Assembly (NCBI GenBank): GCA_028696995.1
Contig: JAQVFY010000002.1
Span: 2,647-66,646 of the forward strand
Source of the DNA: Patescibacteria group bacterium
GTDB taxonomy: Bacteria; Patescibacteriota; Patescibacteriia; Patescibacteriales; UBA12465
Direction: 5' to 3'
Length of the DNA stretch: 64,000 nt
The notes under the pieces are model-generated. The model ran no database searches, was not told where the DNA came from, and worked only from the letters and a program-made list of their open reading frames with translations. Below, piece by piece: positions 2,324 to 64,000 of this stretch. The position numbers and the translations under genes were made by a program. Numbering within the stretch: position 1 is the first letter of the stretch; every line of letters starts with the position of its first letter.

Positions 2324-4345
2324 ATGACTGAAAAAAAGAATAAAAAAAGCGAATATGGCGCAGATTCAATTACCGTCCTAGAAGGACTTGATCCGGTCAG
2401 AAAGAGACCCGGAATGTATATTGGCTCTACTTCATCAACCGGATTACATCATCTAATTTGGGAAGTAGCTGACAATAGTATTGACGAAGCTATGGCTGGA
2501 TATGCTGATGAAATTAGCGTTACTCTATTAAATAATGGAATGGTTAAAGTCGAAGACAATGGCAGAGGAATTCCTGTAGAAAAACATAAGGTTACTGGAC
2601 TATCAGCTCTAGAAACTGTTTTAACTAAATTACATGCTGGAGGAAAATTTGGTGGCGGAGGATACAAAGTTTCCGGAGGTTTACATGGAGTCGGAGTTTC
2701 TGTAGTTAACGCTTTAAGTGAGTATTTAAGAGCTGAAGTTCATAGAGATGGAAAAGTCTGGATGCAAGAATATAAAATTGGTAAACCGCAAAAAAATATC
2801 AAACAAATTGGAACAACTAAAAAAACTGGAACAATTATTATTTTTAAACCCGATACTACCATTTTCACAGAAACTGAATTCAATTGGGGCAAAATTTTAG
2901 ATCGTTTACGCCAACAAGCTTACCTAACTAAAGGTATTACTATTAATGTTATTGATGAAAGAAAAGACCATTCTCCTAAAAAATATCGTTTTTATTTTGA
3001 GGGCGGAATAAAATCATACGTCAAATCAATGCATCGACAAAAAAATGTCAAACATGACACTGTTTTTTATGTTGAAAAAGAGATTGAAAATTGCAAAATA
3101 GAGGTAGCCCTACAATACAACGATGAATACAACGAAATATCACTACCTTTTGCTAATAATATTTATAATGTTGATGGTGGAACTCACTTAATTGGTTTCA
3201 AAACTGCTCTAACAAGAACTCTAAACTCCTACGCCCGAAACAAAAATATTTTAAAAGAAAAAGACGAAAACCTAACTGGAGACGATGTTCGCGAAGGATT
3301 AACTGCTATCATTAGTGTCAAACTTCCCAATCCCCAATTTGAAGGACAAACCAAGGGGAAGCTAGGAAACGCTGAAATAAAAACCTATGTTGAACAAATT
3401 TTTGGCGAAGCCTTCAGCACCTTTCTAGAAGAAAATCCCAAAGAAGCAGAAAGTATTATAGGAAAATGTTTTCTATCAGCTCAAGCTCGCTTAGCAGCTC
3501 GCACTGCTAGAGCAAGCATCCTGAGAAAAGGAGCTTTGGAAGGCATGACTTTACCAGGAAAACTAGCCGACTGCTCCAGTAATAAAGCCGAACAATGTGA
3601 ATTATATATTGTAGAGGGAGACTCTGCTGGAGGTAGCGCTAAACAAGGACGAGACCGACGCTTTCAGGCAATTTTACCCCTAAGAGGAAAAATATTAAAT
3701 GTAGAAAGAGCTCGCCTCGACAAAATGCTATCCAATAATGAAATAAAAAACTTAGTTATTGCTATGGGAACAAATATCGGTGAACAACTTGATATGGAAA
3801 AACTTCGTTATCATCGTATTATTATTATGACCGATGCTGATGTAGATGGATCTCATATCAGAACCCTACTATTAACCCTATTTTTTAGATATTTCAATCC
3901 CTTAATAACTAACGGCTATATTTATATTGCCCAACCACCACTTTATCAAATCAAAAAAGGAAACAACGCTAAATACGCCTATACCGAAGAAGAAAAATTA
4001 AACATCATCAAGGAATTTGGCGGAGACACCGAAGAAGCTGAAATCACTCAAGATCCAACAGCCGAAGAAATAGAAAATCAAGAAGAAGACGAAAAAAACG
4101 ACAAGAAAAAAGACAAAAAACCAAACAAATTATTTATTCAACGCTACAAAGGTTTAGGAGAAATGAATCCTCAACAACTTTGGGAAACAACTATGGACCC
4201 AGCTACTCGCATCGTTAAACAAGTAACCATAGAAGATGCTGCTTATGCTGACAAAATTTTTGATATGTTAATGGGAGATGATGTTTCTAAAAGAAAACAT
4301 TTTATCCAAACTCACGCTAAAAATGTTTCTAATTTAGATATTTAA
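2324..4345 (+). CDS. gyrB: DNA gyrase subunit B
   Basis: GHKL motifs (EVADNSIDEA, DNGRGIP), TOPRIM (YIVEGDSAGGSAKQGRDR, IMTDADVDGSHI) and QRYKGLGEMNP. An acidic/lysine-rich insert of about 40 aa precedes QRYKGLGEM. Confidence 0.95.
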   Translation: MTEKKNKKSEYGADSITVLEGLDPVRKRPGMYIGSTSSTGLHHLIWEVADNSIDEAMAGYADEISVTLLNNGMVKVEDNGRGIPVEKHKVTGLSALETVLTKLHAGGKFGGGGYKVSGGLHGVGVSVVNALSEYLRAEVHRDGKVWMQEYKIGKPQKNIKQIGTTKKTGTIIIFKPDTTIFTETEFNWGKILDRLRQQAYLTKGITINVIDERKDHSPKKYRFYFEGGIKSYVKSMHRQKNVKHDTVFYVEKEIENCKIEVALQYNDEYNEISLPFANNIYNVDGGTHLIGFKTALTRTLNSYARNKNILKEKDENLTGDDVREGLTAIISVKLPNPQFEGQTKGKLGNAEIKTYVEQIFGEAFSTFLEENPKEAESIIGKCFLSAQARLAARTARASILRKGALEGMTLPGKLADCSSNKAEQCELYIVEGDSAGGSAKQGRDRRFQAILPLRGKILNVERARLDKMLSNNEIKNLVIAMGTNIGEQLDMEKLRYHRIIIMTDADVDGSHIRTLLLTLFFRYFNPLITNGYIYIAQPPLYQIKKGNNAKYAYTEEEKLNIIKEFGGDTEEAEITQDPTAEEIENQEEDEKNDKKKDKKPNKLFIQRYKGLGEMNPQQLWETTMDPATRIVKQVTIEDAAYADKIFDMLMGDDVSKRKHFIQTHAKNVSNLDI

Positions 4346-6947: not shown

Positions 6948-8117
6948 TTAATTTATTCCTGGCATTTTTTCTCCGGCTAAATAAGATAACATTGCTCCAC
7001 CACCAGTAGAAACAAAATCCATATATTGACTCATGCCTGACGAGTTAAGGGCCTCCACAGTTTCTCCTCCTCCGCAAACACCAAAAGCTCTGCCACTGGC
7101 ACGAGAAGCTATTTCCCTAGCAATAATTACAGTTCCCTTCTTAAATTTTTCATCCTCAAACATTCCCAGAGGACCATTCCAAACAATAGTTTGCGCCTTT
7201 TTAATATACTGAGAAAATAATAAAATAGTTTCAGGACCAATATCTAAAATACGATCATTATCAGAAATTTCAGCTATCTTTTTAATACTAATAATTGGTT
7301 TTGCAAGAGAAGATTCATCTCGGACCACTACATCTACTGGTAATATTATTTTTTTTGAATTTAAAAATCTTTTTACCAACTTAATTCCATCTTTATCAAC
7401 CAAAGATTTGCCAATATTGAAACCCTGAGCCAAATAAAAATCATTGATCAAAGCTCCTCCTAATAATATATAAGAAGCTTTAGAATATAATTTCTTAATA
7501 ATAGGAATTTTAGTAGAAATTTTAGCTCCACCCATTACTACGACAGAAGGACGTTTAGGATGTAATATTTTATTTAAATTTAAAATTTCTTTCTCCAATA
7601 AAAGACCCATGAAAGATGGCATATTACTGCGAATAGCTGAAATTGAAGAATTCGCTCGGTGAGAAACAGCAAAAGCATCATTAACATAAACATCAGCTAA
7701 AGAGGCCAAAGATTTAGCCAGGCGCTTGCAATTTCTCTCTTCTCCATTATAAAAACGAAGATTATCTAGTAAAAAAATATCTCCACCAGATAAAATCTTT
7801 TTTCTAATTTCACTAAATTTTGAAAATTCTCGATAATCAAAAAAAATAACTTTTTTGTCTAAAATTTTTTCTAAATATTTAGCCACCAGAGCTAAAGAAT
7901 ATTTAGACTCAAAACCATTCTTAGGTTGACCCAAATGACTAGCTAAAACTAGTCGACATTTATTTTTCAATAAGAAATTAATTGTTTCTAAGCTTTGGCG
8001 AATTTTAAAATCTTCCTTGAGCTTTCCTGAACTTAAAACAACATTAAAATCTACCCGTAAAAAAACGGTTTTATCAACTACTTGCCGGTAATTTTTTCGT
8101 AAATTCTTTAATTTCAT
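6948..8117 (-). CDS. pgk: Phosphoglycerate kinase
   Basis: VFLRVDFNV N-terminal motif, GGAKISTKI, and STGGGAMLSYL near the C-terminus, in a 389-aa protein. Confidence 0.95.
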   Translation of the reverse strand: MKLKNLRKNYRQVVDKTVFLRVDFNVVLSSGKLKEDFKIRQSLETINFLLKNKCRLVLASHLGQPKNGFESKYSLALVAKYLEKILDKKVIFFDYREFSKFSEIRKKILSGGDIFLLDNLRFYNGEERNCKRLAKSLASLADVYVNDAFAVSHRANSSISAIRSNMPSFMGLLLEKEILNLNKILHPKRPSVVVMGGAKISTKIPIIKKLYSKASYILLGGALINDFYLAQGFNIGKSLVDKDGIKLVKRFLNSKKIILPVDVVVRDESSLAKPIISIKKIAEISDNDRILDIGPETILLFSQYIKKAQTIVWNGPLGMFEDEKFKKGTVIIAREIASRASGRAFGVCGGGETVEALNSSGMSQYMDFVSTGGGAMLSYLAGEKMPGIN

Positions 8118-30592: not shown

Positions 30593-31666
30593 TCAAATAA
30601 TCAACATTGCATCGCCATAACTAAAAAATCTATAATTTTCGGCAATAGCTTTTTTGTAGATATCTAAGGTTTCTTCTCTACCAATTAATGCACTAATCAT
30701 CAATAATAGGCTTGATTTGGGTAAATGAAAATTGGTTATTAAACTATCAACAATTTTAAATTGATAACCGGGATAAATAAATATATCAGTGGAAAAATTA
30801 ATAGCTTTAGAAACCGCATGCCAACCTACAAGGTTAGCTATACGCGAGGGATCCAAGATCTTCTTAAAAAGACTTTCTAATATGCGGGCTGAAGTTGTGC
30901 CAACGGCAATAATACGTCTTCCCTCTTTTTTGGCTTGAATTATCTTTTGTAAAACCTCTAAAGAAATTTCGACCTCTTCACTATGCATTTGATGCTCCCT
31001 AATATCTTCAGTCTTAATTGGCAAAAATGTTCCTAAACCGACATGCAAAGTCCCCTCTAATATTTCTACGCCTTTTCCTTTTATTTTCTTCAATAATTTT
31101 TCAGTAAAATGAAGACCAGCCGTCGGAGCGGCTGATGACCCCAATTTTTCATCATTAGCATAAATAGTTTGATAATTTTTAATATCATTTTTATTCTTTT
31201 TATCTCTTTTAATATAAGGAGGTAATGGAGTTTGTCCAATTTTTTCTACAATCTTAATAAAATCATCATATTTTTGATCAAAAGAAAGGTGCCAAACATC
31301 ATCCTTTTTTTCTATAACCTGAGCTTTTAAATTTTTAATCAAATCTAATTCTAACCCAGGGCGAACTTTCCCGCCAATTAAACACTCCCAAGTATTTTTT
31401 TTCTTATCAATGTTTTTCAATAAAAAAATTTCTATTTTTCCACCTGTTTTTTTATAAGCTTCTAAGCGAGCTGAAAAAACTTTGGAATTATTTACAAATA
31501 AAATATCACCGGGGTTTAGATAATCAATAATGTCATAAAATTTTTGATGTTCAATTTTTTTGTTCTCTCTATTGTAAATTAAAAGACGGGAATGATCCCG
31601 CGGGTTGACTGGCTCTTGAGCGATAAGCTCTTTTGGCAGATTGTAATCGAAATCGGATAATTTCAT
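30593..31666 (-). CDS. queA: S-adenosylmethionine:tRNA ribosyltransferase-isomerase
   Basis: MKLSDFDYNLPKELIAQEP is a canonical QueA start. The C-terminal YRFFSYGDAMLI also fits. Track ORF (TTG 31699) trimmed to ATG 31666. Confidence 0.9.
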   Translation of the reverse strand: MKLSDFDYNLPKELIAQEPVNPRDHSRLLIYNRENKKIEHQKFYDIIDYLNPGDILFVNNSKVFSARLEAYKKTGGKIEIFLLKNIDKKKNTWECLIGGKVRPGLELDLIKNLKAQVIEKKDDVWHLSFDQKYDDFIKIVEKIGQTPLPPYIKRDKKNKNDIKNYQTIYANDEKLGSSAAPTAGLHFTEKLLKKIKGKGVEILEGTLHVGLGTFLPIKTEDIREHQMHSEEVEISLEVLQKIIQAKKEGRRIIAVGTTSARILESLFKKILDPSRIANLVGWHAVSKAINFSTDIFIYPGYQFKIVDSLITNFHLPKSSLLLMISALIGREETLDIYKKAIAENYRFFSYGDAMLII

Positions 31667-31682
31667 AGAATAATAAAACCAA

Positions 31683-31781
31683 ATCCATAAATTAGGCAAA
31701 ATTTATGGATCGATAATCCATAAATTTGTCAAATTTTATGGAGTGGCAATCCATAAATTAGGGTAAATTTATTCTTTTTGA
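31683..31781. repeat. Three tandem 33-bp units, each an inverted-repeat site ATCCATAAATT-N6-AATTTATGGAT
   Basis: ATCCATAAATT starts at 31683, 31716 and 31749, an exact 33-bp period. Units 1 and 2 carry the partner half-site AATTTATGGAT / ATTTTATGGAG; unit 3 is degraded (AAATTTATTC). Confidence 0.8.
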
Positions 31782-31822: not shown

Positions 31823-32818
31823 CTATTCAGACTTTAGGTGCTTAATAGCTTTATCGGTAGCAATTCGTCCACGAGGAGAACGATCTAAAAAACCAATTTG
31901 CATTAAATACGGCTCATAAACATCTTCAATAGTGGCCATATCTTCTCCAGTAGCCGCAGCCAAAGTATTAATCCCAACTGGTCCTCCACCAAATTTTTCA
32001 ATAATAGTATTTAATATTTTTCTATCGACATAATCCAGACCATATTCATCAACATTTAAAATTTCAAAAGCTCTTAAACAAATTTCCTTATCAATAACTC
32101 CACGACCTTCCACTTCTGAAAAATCGCGAACTCTTTTAAGTAAACGATTAGCGATACGGGGAGTACGTCTCGATCTTTCGGCTATCAAATTTCCAGCCTC
32201 ACCTTCTATTTCGATATTTAAAATTCCAGCACTACGATTTATAATTTTATGGATATGATCGTGTTCATAAAAATCCAAGTGATGAATAATGCCGAATCTA
32301 TCGCGAAGTGGAGCTGATAACATACTCGCTTTAGTTGTTGCCCCAATGATTGTAAATTTTGGTAAATCTAAACGCAAAGTTCGTGCCCCCGGACCTTTAC
32401 CCATTATCAAATCTAAAGCATAGTCTTCCATGGCAGGATATAGAATTTCTTCAATAGCTTTATTAAGTCGATGAATTTCGTCAATAAATAAGATATCGCC
32501 TTCACTTAGATTAGTTAAAATTGCTGCTAAATCGCCACTTTTTTCAATAGCTGGACCAGAGGTTACTTTTATATTTGCCTTTAATTCATTAGCTAAAACA
32601 TGAGCTAAGGTTGTTTTACCTAAACCCGGAGCCCCATAAAACAAAACATGCTCAATGGGTTCATTGCGCTTCAGGGCGGCTTTGATGGTAATATTTAAAT
32701 TAGTTTTAACACCATCTTGGCCAATGTATTCGCTAAAAGACTTGGGGCGTAAGCTCAAATCAAAAGCCTTGTCGCCATTAGTCTCACTTGGATTTATAAT
32801 TCTATCGTTTTCGTTCAT
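31823..32818 (-). CDS. ruvB: Holliday junction branch-migration helicase RuvB
   Basis: [13 protein letters not shown] Walker [25 protein letters not shown]. Track ORF (TTG 32917) trimmed to ATG 32818 (MNENDRI). The extension is an F/I/L-rich readthrough of AT-rich DNA. Confidence 0.95.
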
Positions 32819-32919
32819 AAAATAGAATCTATTATTAATAAAAAACAAAAAAGAATAATTAATAAAAAATATTAATAATACTAACCTTATAATAACACTA
32901 AATAAGGTCTTAAACAATC

Positions 32920-33947: not shown

Positions 33948-33973
33948 AAGGAAGCCAATGCGCTTCCTTTTTT
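33948..33973 (+). terminator. Intrinsic terminator of ORF 33097
   Basis: AAGGAAGC, loop CAATGC, GCTTCCTT, followed by a T-run (33968-33973). Confidence 0.7.
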
Positions 33974-33978
33974 AATTA

Positions 33979-34044
33979 AAGTGTCTAAAAAAATATTACT
34001 TTTATAACATCGGATGTCGAAAAAGACATTACTTTTATGACATC
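33979..34044. repeat. Two tandem 33-bp units (26/33 identical)
   Basis: Unit 1 (33979-34011) is AAGTGTCTAAAAAAATATTACTTTTATAACATC. Unit 2 (34012-34044) is GGATGTCGAAAAAGACATTACTTTTATGACATC. Compared base by base by hand. Confidence 0.75.
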
Positions 34045-34248: not shown

Positions 34249-35292
34249 TCAATTCTGAAGACAGCGAACTGAAAAACCGTAGATCTGATCATTACTACTA
34301 GTGTTAATAACAGCGTGACCAGAGAGAATATAGTGATCCCAAGCACCAGATCCCTCAACCGAAGACGACCAAAAGAGAGCATAGTCAGCAATACCATCAA
34401 AAAAACCATCGGCATCGCGACCACCAGCTGATAAGGCCGTGAAACCAGATTCATTAGTAGCTCCAGTATTAGGAGAATTCCAGTGAGTGGTTCCAACTTC
34501 TTTCATTTTGCCTCCAGCTACTAACGTTCCCCCTAAATAATTAATCAAAGTAACCCATTCGGAGTTAGATGGTATATGCCATCCTGAGGGACAAATTCCT
34601 TGATTTAGCTCAGTAGTAATTCCACACATAGATTGAGTCCATTGATATAATCCTCCATAAATATCACAATTACCTTCTAAATTATTATAACAATATTTTT
34701 CTATATTAGCACAACTTGTTCCCTGATCGCTAGAACCGTTCACCATAGTACCAATATTTAAATTTTTAGCCATCCAACATTGAGTACCAATCTGAACCGT
34801 AGGATAAAAATTTGAATCTCGAGAGTCTATTAAATTATCGCCGCAAGCCCAGGGGGTTAGAGTGGTTATACCACTAGGGCTAGCGACTTTAACCCCTTCG
34901 CCCAATCCTCCGACCCCTGATCCTGTACAGAATGTTATAGTATAAGTTGAACCGTCGGTTGATTCATAAATATAATTATTATCACTTTCAATACATTCTC
35001 CGTCTTGAGGAGTTGGGGCGGTTGGTACTGTTGCCATATAGGTTACTCCGGCTGTAGCAATAAAACTATCTATTTCCCCAGTTAAAGGATATGTTCCGTG
35101 ATCGCTTATATATAAAGATAAGGCTGTTTGAATTTGTCTAATATCAGCCATTCTTTTAAGATCTCTAGCGCGACCTCGAGCATTCTGTAAAGATACTACG
35201 GCAAGAGTTGCTAAAATACCGATAATAGCGATTACCACTAATAACTCTATTAGTGTAAAAGCGAGTTTATTAGATTTAAATTTTTTAAACAT
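34249..35292 (-). CDS. Type IV pilin N-terminus fused to a Fibrobacter succinogenes major paralogous (FISUMP) domain
   Basis: MFKKFKSNKLA then FTLIELLVVIAIIGILATLAVVSL. C-terminal motifs: QCWMAKNLNIGT, GGLYQW, CPSGWHIPSNSEWVTLINYLGG, AGGKMKEVGTTHW, NESGFTALSAGGR, ALFWSSS, GFSVRCLQN. Confidence 0.8.
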   Translation of the reverse strand: MFKKFKSNKLAFTLIELLVVIAIIGILATLAVVSLQNARGRARDLKRMADIRQIQTALSLYISDHGTYPLTGEIDSFIATAGVTYMATVPTAPTPQDGECIESDNNYIYESTDGSTYTITFCTGSGVGGLGEGVKVASPSGITTLTPWACGDNLIDSRDSNFYPTVQIGTQCWMAKNLNIGTMVNGSSDQGTSCANIEKYCYNNLEGNCDIYGGLYQWTQSMCGITTELNQGICPSGWHIPSNSEWVTLINYLGGTLVAGGKMKEVGTTHWNSPNTGATNESGFTALSAGGRDADGFFDGIADYALFWSSSVEGSGAWDHYILSGHAVINTSSNDQIYGFSVRCLQN

Positions 35293-55443: not shown

Positions 55444-56148
55444 TTACCTGGTTCTGTCAAGGATGCCTTGCATGGCATCCATCGTAGCGATGGCCCTTTC
55501 CATCCCGCTTGAGCAGGAGGAAGTGGGGGCTGGTGTCGGAGCCGGAACTGACTGTGGAGCGGTAACCCGCTCAACCAATGCTTGGTTGAGCTGATCCTGC
55601 TGAGCATTACGCTCAGTTTGTTCCTGCTGGCCCCTCTCCAACTTACTGATCCGCCCCGAATTGGAGCGGGACCGACGATCAGCACTTCCGGCCAAGGCTT
55701 TGGCTCTCTCGGCTTCATCTTTGGCCAGATTGGCTCTGGTTTGAGCATCACTGGCCTCAATCTGGGCCTTGTCACCCCCCCTCTCAACATTTCTGTTGAT
55801 AAGGAAGCTGGCCACAAAGATGGCCAAGATCAATCCTCCGACAATAGCTGCAACTGCCCACCAGTTAACCACTGGGGAATTAACAACAGCAACGGCGTTA
55901 GCATTGTTGCCTTGTGCTGGGTTTGGCTGTGGCTGTGGTTGTGGTACAGGTGCTGGCTGTGGAGCCGGTTGCGGCTGTGGCTGCGGTACCGGTTGCGGTT
56001 GTGGCTGTGGAGCCGGTTGCGGTTGTGGCTGTGGCTGTGGAGCCGGTTGCGGTGCTGGTGCTGGCTGTGGAGCCGGTGCCGGTTGCGGCTGTGGTTGCGG
56101 TGTAGACGGAATATCGATGTAAGTTCCGTCCGGAAGATGAATTCTCAT
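55444..56148 (-). CDS. Bitopic membrane protein with P-Q/P-A repeat region and coiled-coil-like C-terminal half (G+C-rich island gene 2)
   Basis: Track ORF (TTG 56235) trimmed to ATG 56148, which has AAGGAGG 7 nt upstream. Sequence: MRIHLPDGTYIDIPST, then 63 residues of PQ/PA/PV repeats, the TM helix WWAVAAIVGGLILAIFVASFLI, then a Q/E/R/A-rich tail. Confidence 0.65.
   Translation of the reverse strand: MRIHLPDGTYIDIPSTPQPQPQPAPAPQPAPAPQPAPQPQPQPQPAPQPQPQPVPQPQPQPAPQPAPVPQPQPQPNPAQGNNANAVAVVNSPVVNWWAVAAIVGGLILAIFVASFLINRNVERGGDKAQIEASDAQTRANLAKDEAERAKALAGSADRRSRSNSGRISKLERGQQEQTERNAQQDQLNQALVERVTAPQSVPAPTPAPTSSCSSGMERAIATMDAMQGILDRTR
55912..56100. repeat. Degenerate 6-nt tandem repeats encoding the (P-Q/A/V)n tract
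   Basis: The plus strand reads GGCTGTGGCTGTGGTTGTGG...GGTTGCGGCTGTGG. All six frames are open here, which generates the WLWLW, GCGCG and VAVVA shadow ORFs in the track. Confidence 0.85.
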
Positions 56149-56311
56149 AATAACCTCCTTTTTTTTATTGTTTTGTAAATGAATTTGCTGGTCATTTGAA
56201 GTTATAAACAAATAATGCTTTATCAAAAAATACAAGAAAATGTCTATAAACTCAAATAACCAGTAAATTCAAAAACCTTTTTGTCAAAGTTCTATTTTTA
56301 ATTAACTGAGA

Positions 56312-62798: not shown

Positions 62799-64000
62799 AT
62801 GAGTGAATTTGACTCTATTTCTAGCTTGCTCAAAGAAGATAAAGATGATTCTAGTCCTCAAGCTAAATTTCTAAGCAAGCAACAAGAAATAAAAAACAAA
62901 GAAATAGAAAGACAAACACAGGCCCAAGCTCAAGCTCTCGGCCTGTCTTATATTGATTTATTTGGCTTCCCGATTAGCCCTGAAGCAATTTCTCTAATAC
63001 CCGAAGAATCTGCTATAAAAAATAAAGTGGTCTGTTTTTTTTATGATGGTGAAAATATTCGTATTGCTACTAGCAACCCGAAAAATCCAGAAGTAGAAAA
63101 AATTACTCAAACAATAAATAAACAATACTTTACTAAAAGTAATCTTTACCTAATTTCTGACAATAGCCTTAAACATGCTCTAAGTTTATACAAAACACTT
63201 CCTAAAATCAAAAAGAATATCAAGGGAATAGAAATAACCGAAGAAAATTTAAAAAATTTTGAAAATATTATAACCGATTACAAAAGCTTAAATACAAAAA
63301 TAAATGAAGTAAACATTTCTGATGTAGTTACCCTAATTTTAGCCACCGCTCTAAAATCAAATGCCAGTGATGTTCATATCGAAGCCGAAAGTGAAGGTAT
63401 TGTAGTCCGCCTTAGAATTGATGGTGTCTTACAAGAAGCAGCTACCATCAATAAAGGCAAATGGAAAAAAATAATCTCTCGTATGAAAATGTTGGCAGGA
63501 GTAAAAATAAATATTGAAGATAAACCACAAGACGGACGCTATTCAATCTTCTTAGAAAACGATCATATTGATGTTCGTTCTTCCTTTTTACCAACAGCTT
63601 TTGGCGAAAGTGTAGTTATGCGTCTACTACGTTCTAGCTCGTCTGGACTATCATTTGATGATTTAGGAATCAGACCCCAGGCTCTAGAAATACTTAAAAA
63701 AGAAATAAGTAGGCCCAATGGATTAGTTTTAACCACCGGACCAACTGGTAGTGGAAAAACTACTACACTATACGCTATTTTAAATAAATTAAATCAACCT
63801 AATACCAAAATAATTACCCTAGAAGATCCCATTGAATACCAATTAGAAGGCATTAGCCAAAGCCAAATTGATCCTAAAAAAGATTATACTTTTGCTTCTG
63901 GCTTGCGCTCTATTTTACGCCAAGATCCCAACATTGTTATGGTTGGAGAAATTAGAGACATAGAAACAGCCGAAATATCAGTCCAAGCTAGTTTAACTGG
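62799..64000 (+). CDS. pilB: Type II/IV secretion ATPase (PilB/GspE family), 3-prime partial
   Basis: Absent from the track because there is no stop in the window. ATG at 62799 gives MSEFDSISSLLKED. N-terminal GSPII-like domain (LGLSYIDLFGFPISPEAISLIPEE), ASDVHIE, and Walker A LTTGPTGSGKTTTLYA at about 63730. The frame is open to the window end. Confidence 0.9.
   Translation, partial: MSEFDSISSLLKEDKDDSSPQAKFLSKQQEIKNKEIERQTQAQAQALGLSYIDLFGFPISPEAISLIPEESAIKNKVVCFFYDGENIRIATSNPKNPEVEKITQTINKQYFTKSNLYLISDNSLKHALSLYKTLPKIKKNIKGIEITEENLKNFENIITDYKSLNTKINEVNISDVVTLILATALKSNASDVHIEAESEGIVVRLRIDGVLQEAATINKGKWKKIISRMKMLAGVKINIEDKPQDGRYSIFLENDHIDVRSSFLPTAFGESVVMRLLRSSSSGLSFDDLGIRPQALEILKKEISRPNGLVLTTGPTGSGKTTTLYAILNKLNQPNTKIITLEDPIEYQLEGISQSQIDPKKDYTFASGLRSILRQDPNIVMVGEIRDIETAEISVQASLT

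Follow-up and report, generated by a model that had tools for sequence, protein, structure and literature searches.

The tandem palindromes between ruvB and queA in the 64,000-nucleotide stretch analysed in this study (the window) are, judged by sequence, an orphan by descent of an array that in other genomes stands directly 5' of a gene for an AAA_14/DUF4143 ATPase of the PDC-S01 type. We believe, with a probability of roughly 0.6, that the array is the orphaned cis-regulatory module (operator repeats with an embedded promoter) of a mobile one-gene PDC-S01 cassette, and that this module is probably bound by the winged helix of the cassette's own product for autorepression. The local array is a relic, yet it reveals a cis-element shared across phyla by a very abundant and uncharacterised family of defence candidates.

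Studies have catalogued DUF4143/COG1373 as a PD-(D/E)xK family of unknown function (PMC3424549). PDC-S01, in which an ATPase is fused to a PD-(D/E)xK domain, is reported to be the fourth commonest defence candidate in prokaryotes, and most such candidates still await experimental validation (PMC12988326). In rumen genomes it is the most frequent single locus (PMC13356809). No description of the palindromic element was found in the literature on DUF4143, COG1373, PDC-S01 and the motif, which was covered in part, and the matches were only censuses and primer or CodY-box coincidences. The motif is nearly constant beside one PDC-S01 subfamily, and it offers a testable handle on how these proteins read sequence, how their expression is held down and how they enter housekeeping operons. 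For annotation, the lesson is that striking tandem palindromes before a housekeeping gene can be the footprint of a lost mobile gene.

Layout of the array in the window

The features of the locus are given below, where L202 is the corresponding locus of a related Patescibacteria metagenome-assembled genome (MAG).

31682 to 31780, no strand: whole array, three tandem 33-bp units (TRF and repeat search)
31683 to 31710, no strand: unit 1, closest to queA, ATCCATAAATT-AGGCAA-AATTTATGGAT, a perfect 11-N6-11 palindrome
31716 to 31743, no strand: unit 2, ATCCATAAATT-TGTCAA-ATTTTATGGAG, two arm mismatches, orthologous to the promoter-proximal unit of L202
31749 to 31776, no strand: unit 3, ATCCATAAATT-AGGGTA-AATTTATTCTT, degenerate right arm
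31727 to 31732, minus strand: TTGACA in the unit-2 loop (TGTCAA on the plus strand), reading toward queA
31670 to 31699, minus strand: candidate relic promoter, TTGCCT (31694-31699, unit-1 loop), 18 nt, TATTAT (31670-31675), from a scan with 9 of 12 matches
30593 to 31666, minus strand: queA, S-adenosylmethionine:tRNA ribosyltransferase-isomerase, 357 aa, start MKLSDFDYNLP (open reading frame; Pfam PF02547 on the identical L001 product)
31823 to 32821, minus strand: ruvB, 332 aa, start MNENDRII (open reading frame; 88.8% amino acid identity to the L202 gene, which carries RuvB_N/AAA_lid_4/WHD_RuvB)

Because ruvB and queA are both on the minus strand, the array is flanked by the ruvB stop (31823-31825) on one side and the start of queA on the other. 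As had been predicted, it fills the queA upstream region and begins 17 bp from the ATG at 31666-31664. The half-site ATCCATAAATT occurred exactly at 31683, 31716 and 31749 on the plus strand and at 31700-31710 on the minus strand. TRF reported 31682-31772 with a period of 33, 2.8 copies and a score of 119, the top-scoring long-period array in its part of the window, and the repeat search placed the starts of the 33-nt copies at 31682, 31715 and 31748, with identities of 100%, 79% and 73%, respectively, and detected an inverted repeat of 11/11 with a 6-nt gap. Compared with ATCCATAAATT-N6-AATTTATGGAT, units 1, 2 and 3 had 0, 2 and 3 mismatches, respectively, and the right arm of unit 3 retained AAATTTAT alone, which is about half of it. 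The original prediction had described three copies at 33-bp intervals, an inverted partner 6 nt downstream in units 1 and 2, a partial partner in unit 3 and a TTGACA on the queA strand in the unit-2 spacer, and all of these were found again in our analysis. The 28-bp palindromes are spaced by just 5 bp, the unit-to-unit spacing is 33 and 33 bp, and the DNA hairpin of unit 1 had an energy of -7.3 kcal/mol.

When up to 3 mismatches were allowed, the full pattern had no further site in the 64 kb and occurred 0 times in 100 dinucleotide shuffles, so the expected enrichment over shuffled sequence was confirmed. The bare 11-mer with 1 mismatch allowed was seen 12 times in the window against 7.6 expected, with no enrichment outside the array. 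Since the 11-mer is at chance level elsewhere, the signal is the array and not a dispersed motif. The earlier suggestion of a decayed small repeat element holds in so far as the array, being orphaned, is a remnant, but not as a dispersed repeat, because the window has a single locus.

The candidate relic promoter resembles the cassettes found elsewhere in layout, with weaker hexamers and a nearer ATG than is typical of them. Its -10 ends 3 nt before the queA ATG, too near for a standard leaderless start, and it may therefore yield no translatable queA mRNA. We do not claim it as the driver of queA, since functional leaderless cassettes leave more room between the -10 and the ATG. Insertion of unit 1 has moved the TTGACA of unit 2 in the window away from any good -10.

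The motif, its partner gene and the intact cassettes

The pattern TCCATAAAWT-N6-AWTTTATGGA was scanned in one genome per species, covering 185,579 species. The original prediction had proposed to scan the genome for other copies; the window gave none elsewhere, and the scan across species gave at least 119 loci in public genomes. These loci come from many phyla, including Patescibacteria, Chloroflexota, Bacteroidota, Gamma- and Deltaproteobacteria, Spirochaetota, Nitrospirota, Omnitrophota and Ignavibacteriota, and several of them have two exact copies precisely 33 bp apart. The general palindrome is yTCCATAAATT-N6-AATTTATGGAr, and the window units carry its half-site and, after the 6-nt loop, its inverted partner. 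By a rough estimate, about 2 matches are expected by chance at equiprobable bases; the figure would reach some tens only if the AT-richness of the window applied to all DNA. We recognised a noise class of 18 isolated AAAAT/ATTTT-type palindromes, for example before a CTP-synthase-like gene (read from its N-terminus) in Prevotella.

An AAA_14/DUF4143 ATPase homolog was found within 250 bp of the motif in 78 of the at least 119 loci listed, and in 72 of those 78 the array was immediately 5' of the ATPase gene; the genes on the other flank of the array differ between loci. The partner gene product has about 375 aa and the N-terminus MIKRxYExLxxYLxPNKVLxIYGPRRVGKTT, and it matched Pfam AAA_14 (1e-26), DUF4143 (2e-38) and the PADLOC PDC-S01 model PDLC04789 (E=1e-145). 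The motif-adjacent ATPases diverge to about 57% median identity across phyla, with the motif almost constant. When loci were retrieved by protein, 8 of 8 independent loci (L202, L203, L205, L213, L215, L216, L217 and L218, with ATPases 61-100% identical to P0001, the ATPase of L202) could be seen to carry units in the roughly 110 bp before the start codon. Their neighbourhoods were unrelated: ruvB/queA, an IS110 region, dnaB/sigma factor, MFS/glycosyltransferase, rpoC/ftsK, a second DUF4143 gene and ybeY.

The tally of units, made on 72 arrays (the listed ATPase-adjacent arrays and the window array), gave 1, 2, 3, 4 and 5 units phased at 33 bp at 18, 43, 7, 3 and 1 loci, respectively, and the spacing was 33 bp in nearly all multi-unit arrays at other loci. 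A logo built from 193 distinct units showed conserved arms (positions 2-11 and 18-27) with the same consensus as the window half-site, a conservation that is partly circular because the loci were collected by the exact motif, and a nearly unconstrained 6-nt loop and 5-nt spacer. The TCCAT cores are 21 bp apart inside a unit and 12 bp apart over the junction, and they recur with a period of 33 bp, or about 3.1 turns. The outermost pair of arm positions was complementary in 106 cases against 60 expected, a covariation that is compatible with a symmetric protein and with hairpin or cruciform extrusion alike.

The arrays overlap promoters. A TTGACA with at most 1 mismatch was centred on a unit loop of the gene strand in 36 of the 72 arrays; 28 of these 36 had a -10 at 16-18 nt, and in 20 of the 28 the ATG followed 4-8 nt past the -10, which implies that such cassettes are probably transcribed into leaderless mRNAs. 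A typical example is L007, with CTCCATAAATT-TTGACA-AATTTATGGAG-TTAAGG-TATACT-CCGCTT-ATG. With the -35 in the unit loop, the right arm of the proximal unit occupies the promoter spacer, and the distal units are upstream of the promoter, outside the regulated transcript. This layout was present in only about half of the cassettes. TTGACA-like loops were also found on the opposite strand in 25 of the 72 arrays, and a deltaproteobacterial group has one palindrome that abuts the ATG.

Several smaller observations were made on the cassettes. In one closely related cassette group, the ATPase coding region itself contains a further site resembling the motif, with at most 4 mismatches in 20 positions (L017:348, L104:7412 and L110:3569); its distance downstream from the upstream unit is 100 bp, about 3 x 33. 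In L104, array and promoter are present twice (3292-3360 and 7440-7540), inverted, 4.2 kb apart and identical up to the ATG. Since one copy enters the ATPase and the other unrelated sequence, the start codon is the exact point at which the control module was duplicated or recombined. The contigs L030 and L038 of one MAG (JAIPIE01) end in or beside the same array with a common adjoining promoter sequence, which suggests that assemblies break at palindromic arrays and that MAG censuses may under-count them.

P0001 was modelled with AlphaFold (AF2) at high confidence (pLDDT 88.6, pTM 0.88). Besides the AAA+ core and its helical lid, the model shows a winged helix at residues 196-265 (helix-helix-helix-strand-strand) and, C-terminal to it, an alpha/beta domain in which a D...E-x-K signature was read from the sequences. 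The best PDB folds by Foldseek were RuvB, ORC/Cdc6, Apaf-1, RFC and MuB, all of them AAA+/winged-helix proteins, and a search of solved structures by sequence gave P-loop matches only and no close relative.

The motif was absent at four plasmid homologs with 44-49% identity (from Trichlorobacter lovleyi, Desulfosarcina BuS5, Bacteroides finegoldii and Treponema saccharophilum), which have other direct or inverted repeats at the same upstream place. Second, more distant paralogs in L009, L036, L056 and L110 likewise have other upstream repeats. The recognition helix of the motif-bearing proteins starts with D-V/T/I-K-T, with the one exception of DTAT in L023, and those of the four plasmid proteins start with SKNT, NNET, SKTT and DSLT; the basic wing GFSRNLRKE is common to all aligned proteins. 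In this small sample, the recognition-helix differences fit a putative reading by each subfamily of its own upstream repeats.

Repeats of other kinds before PDC-S01 genes were seen at several places: three direct TTTCATTTnGCCG repeats at L009:~560-740, ATTTGAC/GTCAAAT palindromes at L056:~3655-3760 and, at L211:~1400-1490 and L212:~1370-1450, two GTAAAAWTCGCCAWTTAA copies about 33 bp apart on the B. finegoldii plasmid and two TCGAAAATTATTATAATATTT copies on pTS1 of T. saccharophilum. These suggest a general rule for the PDC-S01 family that each gene has its own repeats upstream.

Descent of the array and proposed mechanism

The related locus (L028/L202, contig JBBACQ010000004.1) is collinear with about 22.7-42 kb of the window. 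The common gene order is RadC, M16 peptidase, UvrD/PDDEXK helicase, a 280-aa membrane protein, RuvB and QueA, followed by S26 peptidase, HisRS, RelA/SpoT, a pilin-Big_5 protein and RecA. In L202, the interval between ruvB and queA consists of a spacer of about 26 nt, two units, a consensus promoter TTGACA(loop)-17-TATAAT, whose -35 corresponds to the TTGACA of window unit 2, and a gene for a 370-aa ATPase, whose TAA stop overlaps the queA ATG (TAATG). In the window, tblastn found no ATPase homolog in the 64 kb, nothing is left of an ATPase open reading frame, and queA follows directly after the array. The tblastn matches were P-loop noise only; a weak one at 63702-63953, at the end of the window, was rejected as the ATPase gene because its translation was read as that of an unrelated secretion-type ATPase.

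The two L202 units are orthologous to window units 3 and 2. Unit 1 has no counterpart in L202 and is therefore an extra unit in the window, and the degenerate arm of unit 3 is also present in L202 and is therefore an ancestral common feature, not new decay. Between the window and L202, RuvB and QueA are 88.8% and 71% identical in amino acids, respectively, and 4-fold sites are 41-44% identical, which means saturated. Units 3 and 2, including the degenerate arm, are identical at 55 of 58 nt (95%), and the remaining spacer between ruvB and the array could not be aligned. Such array identity against saturated 4-fold sites points to either a recent loss of the gene or continued constraint. The constraint could stem from a paralogous ATPase in trans or from a role in queA expression.

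Conservation before queA in relatives, which the original prediction had proposed to check, was not observed. The motif was present at 0 of 80 metagenome queA loci, from a QueA scan in which most loci had at most 50% identity and close relatives were lacking (L028/L202 came from the DNA-pattern scan). In L121, the nearest of the 80, whose QueA is 58% identical, the ruvB stop is followed by TT and the queA ATG, with neither array nor intergenic region, and in L202 the array precedes the ATPase.

We consider it the most economical history that a cassette was inserted between ruvB and queA in the common ancestor of the window and L202, that the window lineage precisely lost the open reading frame, and that one unit was duplicated. 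On the two genomes compared, the alternative polarity, with the open reading frame inserted behind a pre-existing array, may also hold. The window array is not alone in its state: among the at least 119 loci listed, arrays lie beside 5'-truncated ATPase fragments in L033, L047 and L069, and at least 8 internal arrays with several units lie farther than 250 bp from any ATPase (L006, L025, L045, L061, L066, L091, L097 and L113). By descent, the window array belongs with the orphans, like L025, L066, L097 and L113.

Two further observations concern these genomes. The ATPase stop overlaps the start of the downstream gene at L213:2622-2625 (a glycosyltransferase gene) and at L202:11113 (queA), and from this overlap the inserted gene was spliced into the host operon with the geometry of translational coupling. 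A 347-aa protein with a prepilin-type N-terminus (FTLIELLVVIAIIGILA), encoded at 34249-35292 on the minus strand, is missing from L202, so that the two genomes differ by a second single gene.

The ATPase was taken as the binder because it is the sole gene that travels with the motif across phyla, the genes of the other flank being variable. From this co-transfer, the promoter overlap, the predicted winged helix and the recognition-helix differences, we infer that the PDC-S01 winged helix may bind the operator. The cassette would then be a single PDC-S01-type gene, encoding an AAA+ ATPase, lid, winged helix and PD-(D/E)xK nuclease, with the array directly 5' of it. The protein's own winged helix would bind each palindrome as a symmetric pair, AAA+ oligomerisation would bridge adjacent units to give cooperative occupancy, and the potentially toxic nuclease gene would be silenced by autorepression once the promoter unit is occupied. 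After insertion between ruvB and queA, precise deletion of the ATPase open reading frame and duplication of one unit would have left the array and the relic promoter fused to the queA ATG. Such an orphan array would act only through a paralogous ATPase in trans, or through its promoter or hairpins.

Alternative readings and comparable systems

The array may also be a pure relic, a non-functional leftover of the lost cassette that nothing binds and that is drifting to decay. Its origin would be the same as that of the orphaned regulatory module. We hold this to be possible, if rather doubtful. The window has no ATPase homolog, the eight or more orphans and the three arrays beside truncated fragments mean that such remnants recur, and some orphans, for example L066, look decayed. 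However, units 3 and 2 have kept their identity to L202 despite the saturated 4-fold sites, unit 1 is a perfect palindrome and the defect of unit 3 is ancestral, a combination that agrees only with a very recent loss or with continued constraint.

It is also conceivable that the arrays, beyond being autorepressor sites, are an assembly platform for an AAA+/winged-helix/nuclease oligomer and that orphans keep a function under selection. They might do so through loading by a paralog encoded elsewhere, which would connect host genes, queA among them, to a defence or stress response or would mark 'self' DNA, or as target or junction sites of the cassette between operons. We regard this as unlikely.

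A reading based on mobility or targeting, which we judge quite unlikely, takes the palindromes as recognition, assembly or cleavage sites of the PD-(D/E)xK nuclease, and hence as a cassette end or a target of homing or recombination, instead of or besides an operator; the orphan would be an emptied or target site. The unrelated neighbourhoods of close homologs (dnaB/sigma factor, rpoC/ftsK, ybeY, MFS/glycosyltransferase and ruvB/queA) are consistent with it, as are the boundaries of presence and absence that are precise to the open reading frame, namely the overlap of ATPase stop and queA ATG in L202 and the duplicate up to the ATG in L104. L096 and L099 have an array on either side of the gene and L059 has one 3' of it, and in L033, L047 and L069 deletions extend into the gene from the array, all of which points in the same direction. 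However, arrays are normally only 5' of the gene, palindromes by themselves promote deletions, and the cassettes have no linked integrase or transposase. At the naive site L121 an array is missing altogether, which indicates that the array comes with the gene and is no pre-existing target, and the motif was found in just 1 of 2.9 million viral contigs.

We consider it improbable that the units act at the RNA level, folding into hairpins on a ruvB-queA transcript and thereby ending or attenuating read-through or hiding the queA start. The minus-strand RNA does fold at -34.5 kcal/mol (z = -3.4), and the unit-1 hairpin is followed by UUUGGUUUUAUUAUU right before the queA AUG. However, the low folding energy results from the palindromes, from which weak A/U-rich hairpins follow automatically, there are only 2 G-C pairs in the stems, and the scan for terminators made no call. 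In cassettes with the -35 in the loop, the units are at or upstream of the promoter and therefore outside the regulated mRNA. With Rfam 15, three tRNAs alone passed the threshold in the window and none of these was in the array region, where the best match was sub-threshold miRNA-hairpin noise (29 bits against a cut-off of 83).

The original prediction of a cooperative operator array for queA holds in its operator-type architecture for a symmetric binder and fails as control of queA. That a host HTH regulator controls queA through a dedicated cooperative operator is very improbable and largely refuted, since, against an array that fills the queA upstream region with promoter-like hexamers on the queA strand, none of the 80 queA loci has the motif, ruvB and queA abut in L121, the L202 array precedes the ATPase and not queA, and the motif follows PDC-S01 across phyla.

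Several other identities were rejected. A phage origin was discarded on the single viral contig with the motif and on the distance of the ATPase homologs in phage records (at most 45% identity). A replication origin, iteron or DnaA-box cluster was rejected because the GC skew stays negative over the whole window without an inflection and there is no adjacent dnaA or rep; a CRISPR array because the 28-bp palindromes are just 5 bp apart and no cas gene is apparent among the neighbouring open reading frames; and an intrinsic terminator because the scan made no call. REP/BIME or MITE elements of the dispersed type were excluded by the single locus of the full pattern in 64 kb and the chance level of the 11-mer, and a pair of NrdR boxes by a sequence that differs from the 16-bp acaCwAtATaTwGtgt and by the flanks ruvB and queA.

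The arrangement read here as an autorepressing operator can be compared with known systems. In C-box systems of the C.PvuII and C.AhdI type, tandem palindromic operators overlap the promoter of the binder's own gene, transcripts are often leaderless, and the C-protein circuits autoregulate a potentially toxic nuclease system on a mobile unit. Similarly, the PDC-S01 arrays are tandem palindromes over the promoter of the presumed binder gene, in some cassettes with a predicted leaderless layout, and with a mobile nuclease gene. In contrast, the PDC-S01 motif is unrelated to the C-boxes and a small C protein of the Xre type is lacking; the effector, a fusion of AAA+, winged-helix and nuclease domains, is itself the presumed binder, and arrays go up to 4-5 units at a strict 33-bp period.

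NrdR boxes are tandem palindromes about three helical turns apart before ribonucleotide reductase operons in many phyla, and they are bound cooperatively by NrdR, a nucleotide-regulated oligomeric repressor. The PDC-S01 palindromes are likewise in tandem, about 3 turns apart and spread across many phyla, but they are 28 bp long and of a different sequence, have no nrd gene near them and move with a mobile gene instead of a housekeeping regulon. As with Orc1/Cdc6 and ORB elements or DnaA and DnaA boxes, an AAA+/winged-helix ATPase is encoded beside repeated DNA elements that look cognate, whereas the uniformly negative GC skew gives no sign of an origin, the cassette is inside housekeeping operons and the protein has a nuclease domain. 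Autoregulators of the BrxR/CapW type (wHTH/WYL proteins) use palindromic operators to hold anti-phage loci low until a trigger arrives. PDC-S01 arrays resemble these in having putative palindromic operators at the promoter of a defence-candidate gene, and differ in that BrxR and CapW are separate small proteins, whereas no separate regulator is linked to PDC-S01 and the DNA-binding domain is inside the candidate effector. The TCCATAAATT-type 33-bp palindromic array of PDC-S01 thus falls outside the sequence and context definitions of the C-box, NrdR and initiator-array systems.

The window has other repeats as well. An unrelated tandem direct repeat with a 33-bp period, GTCTAAAAAAATATTACTTTTATAACATC / GTCGAAAAAGACATTACTTTTATGACATC, was found at 33982-34044 (TRF score 98). 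The 279-aa membrane-protein gene and a pilin-like gene converge on the intergenic region that contains it, and a GC hairpin and T-run terminator at about 33950-33980 directly precedes it. On the minus strand, an open reading frame at 55444-56235 contains a long (PQ/PA)n low-complexity repeat beginning PQPQPQPAPAPQPAP, which accounts for the GC-rich block (about 0.41) and the 6-, 24- and 30-bp TRF arrays at 55924-56094.
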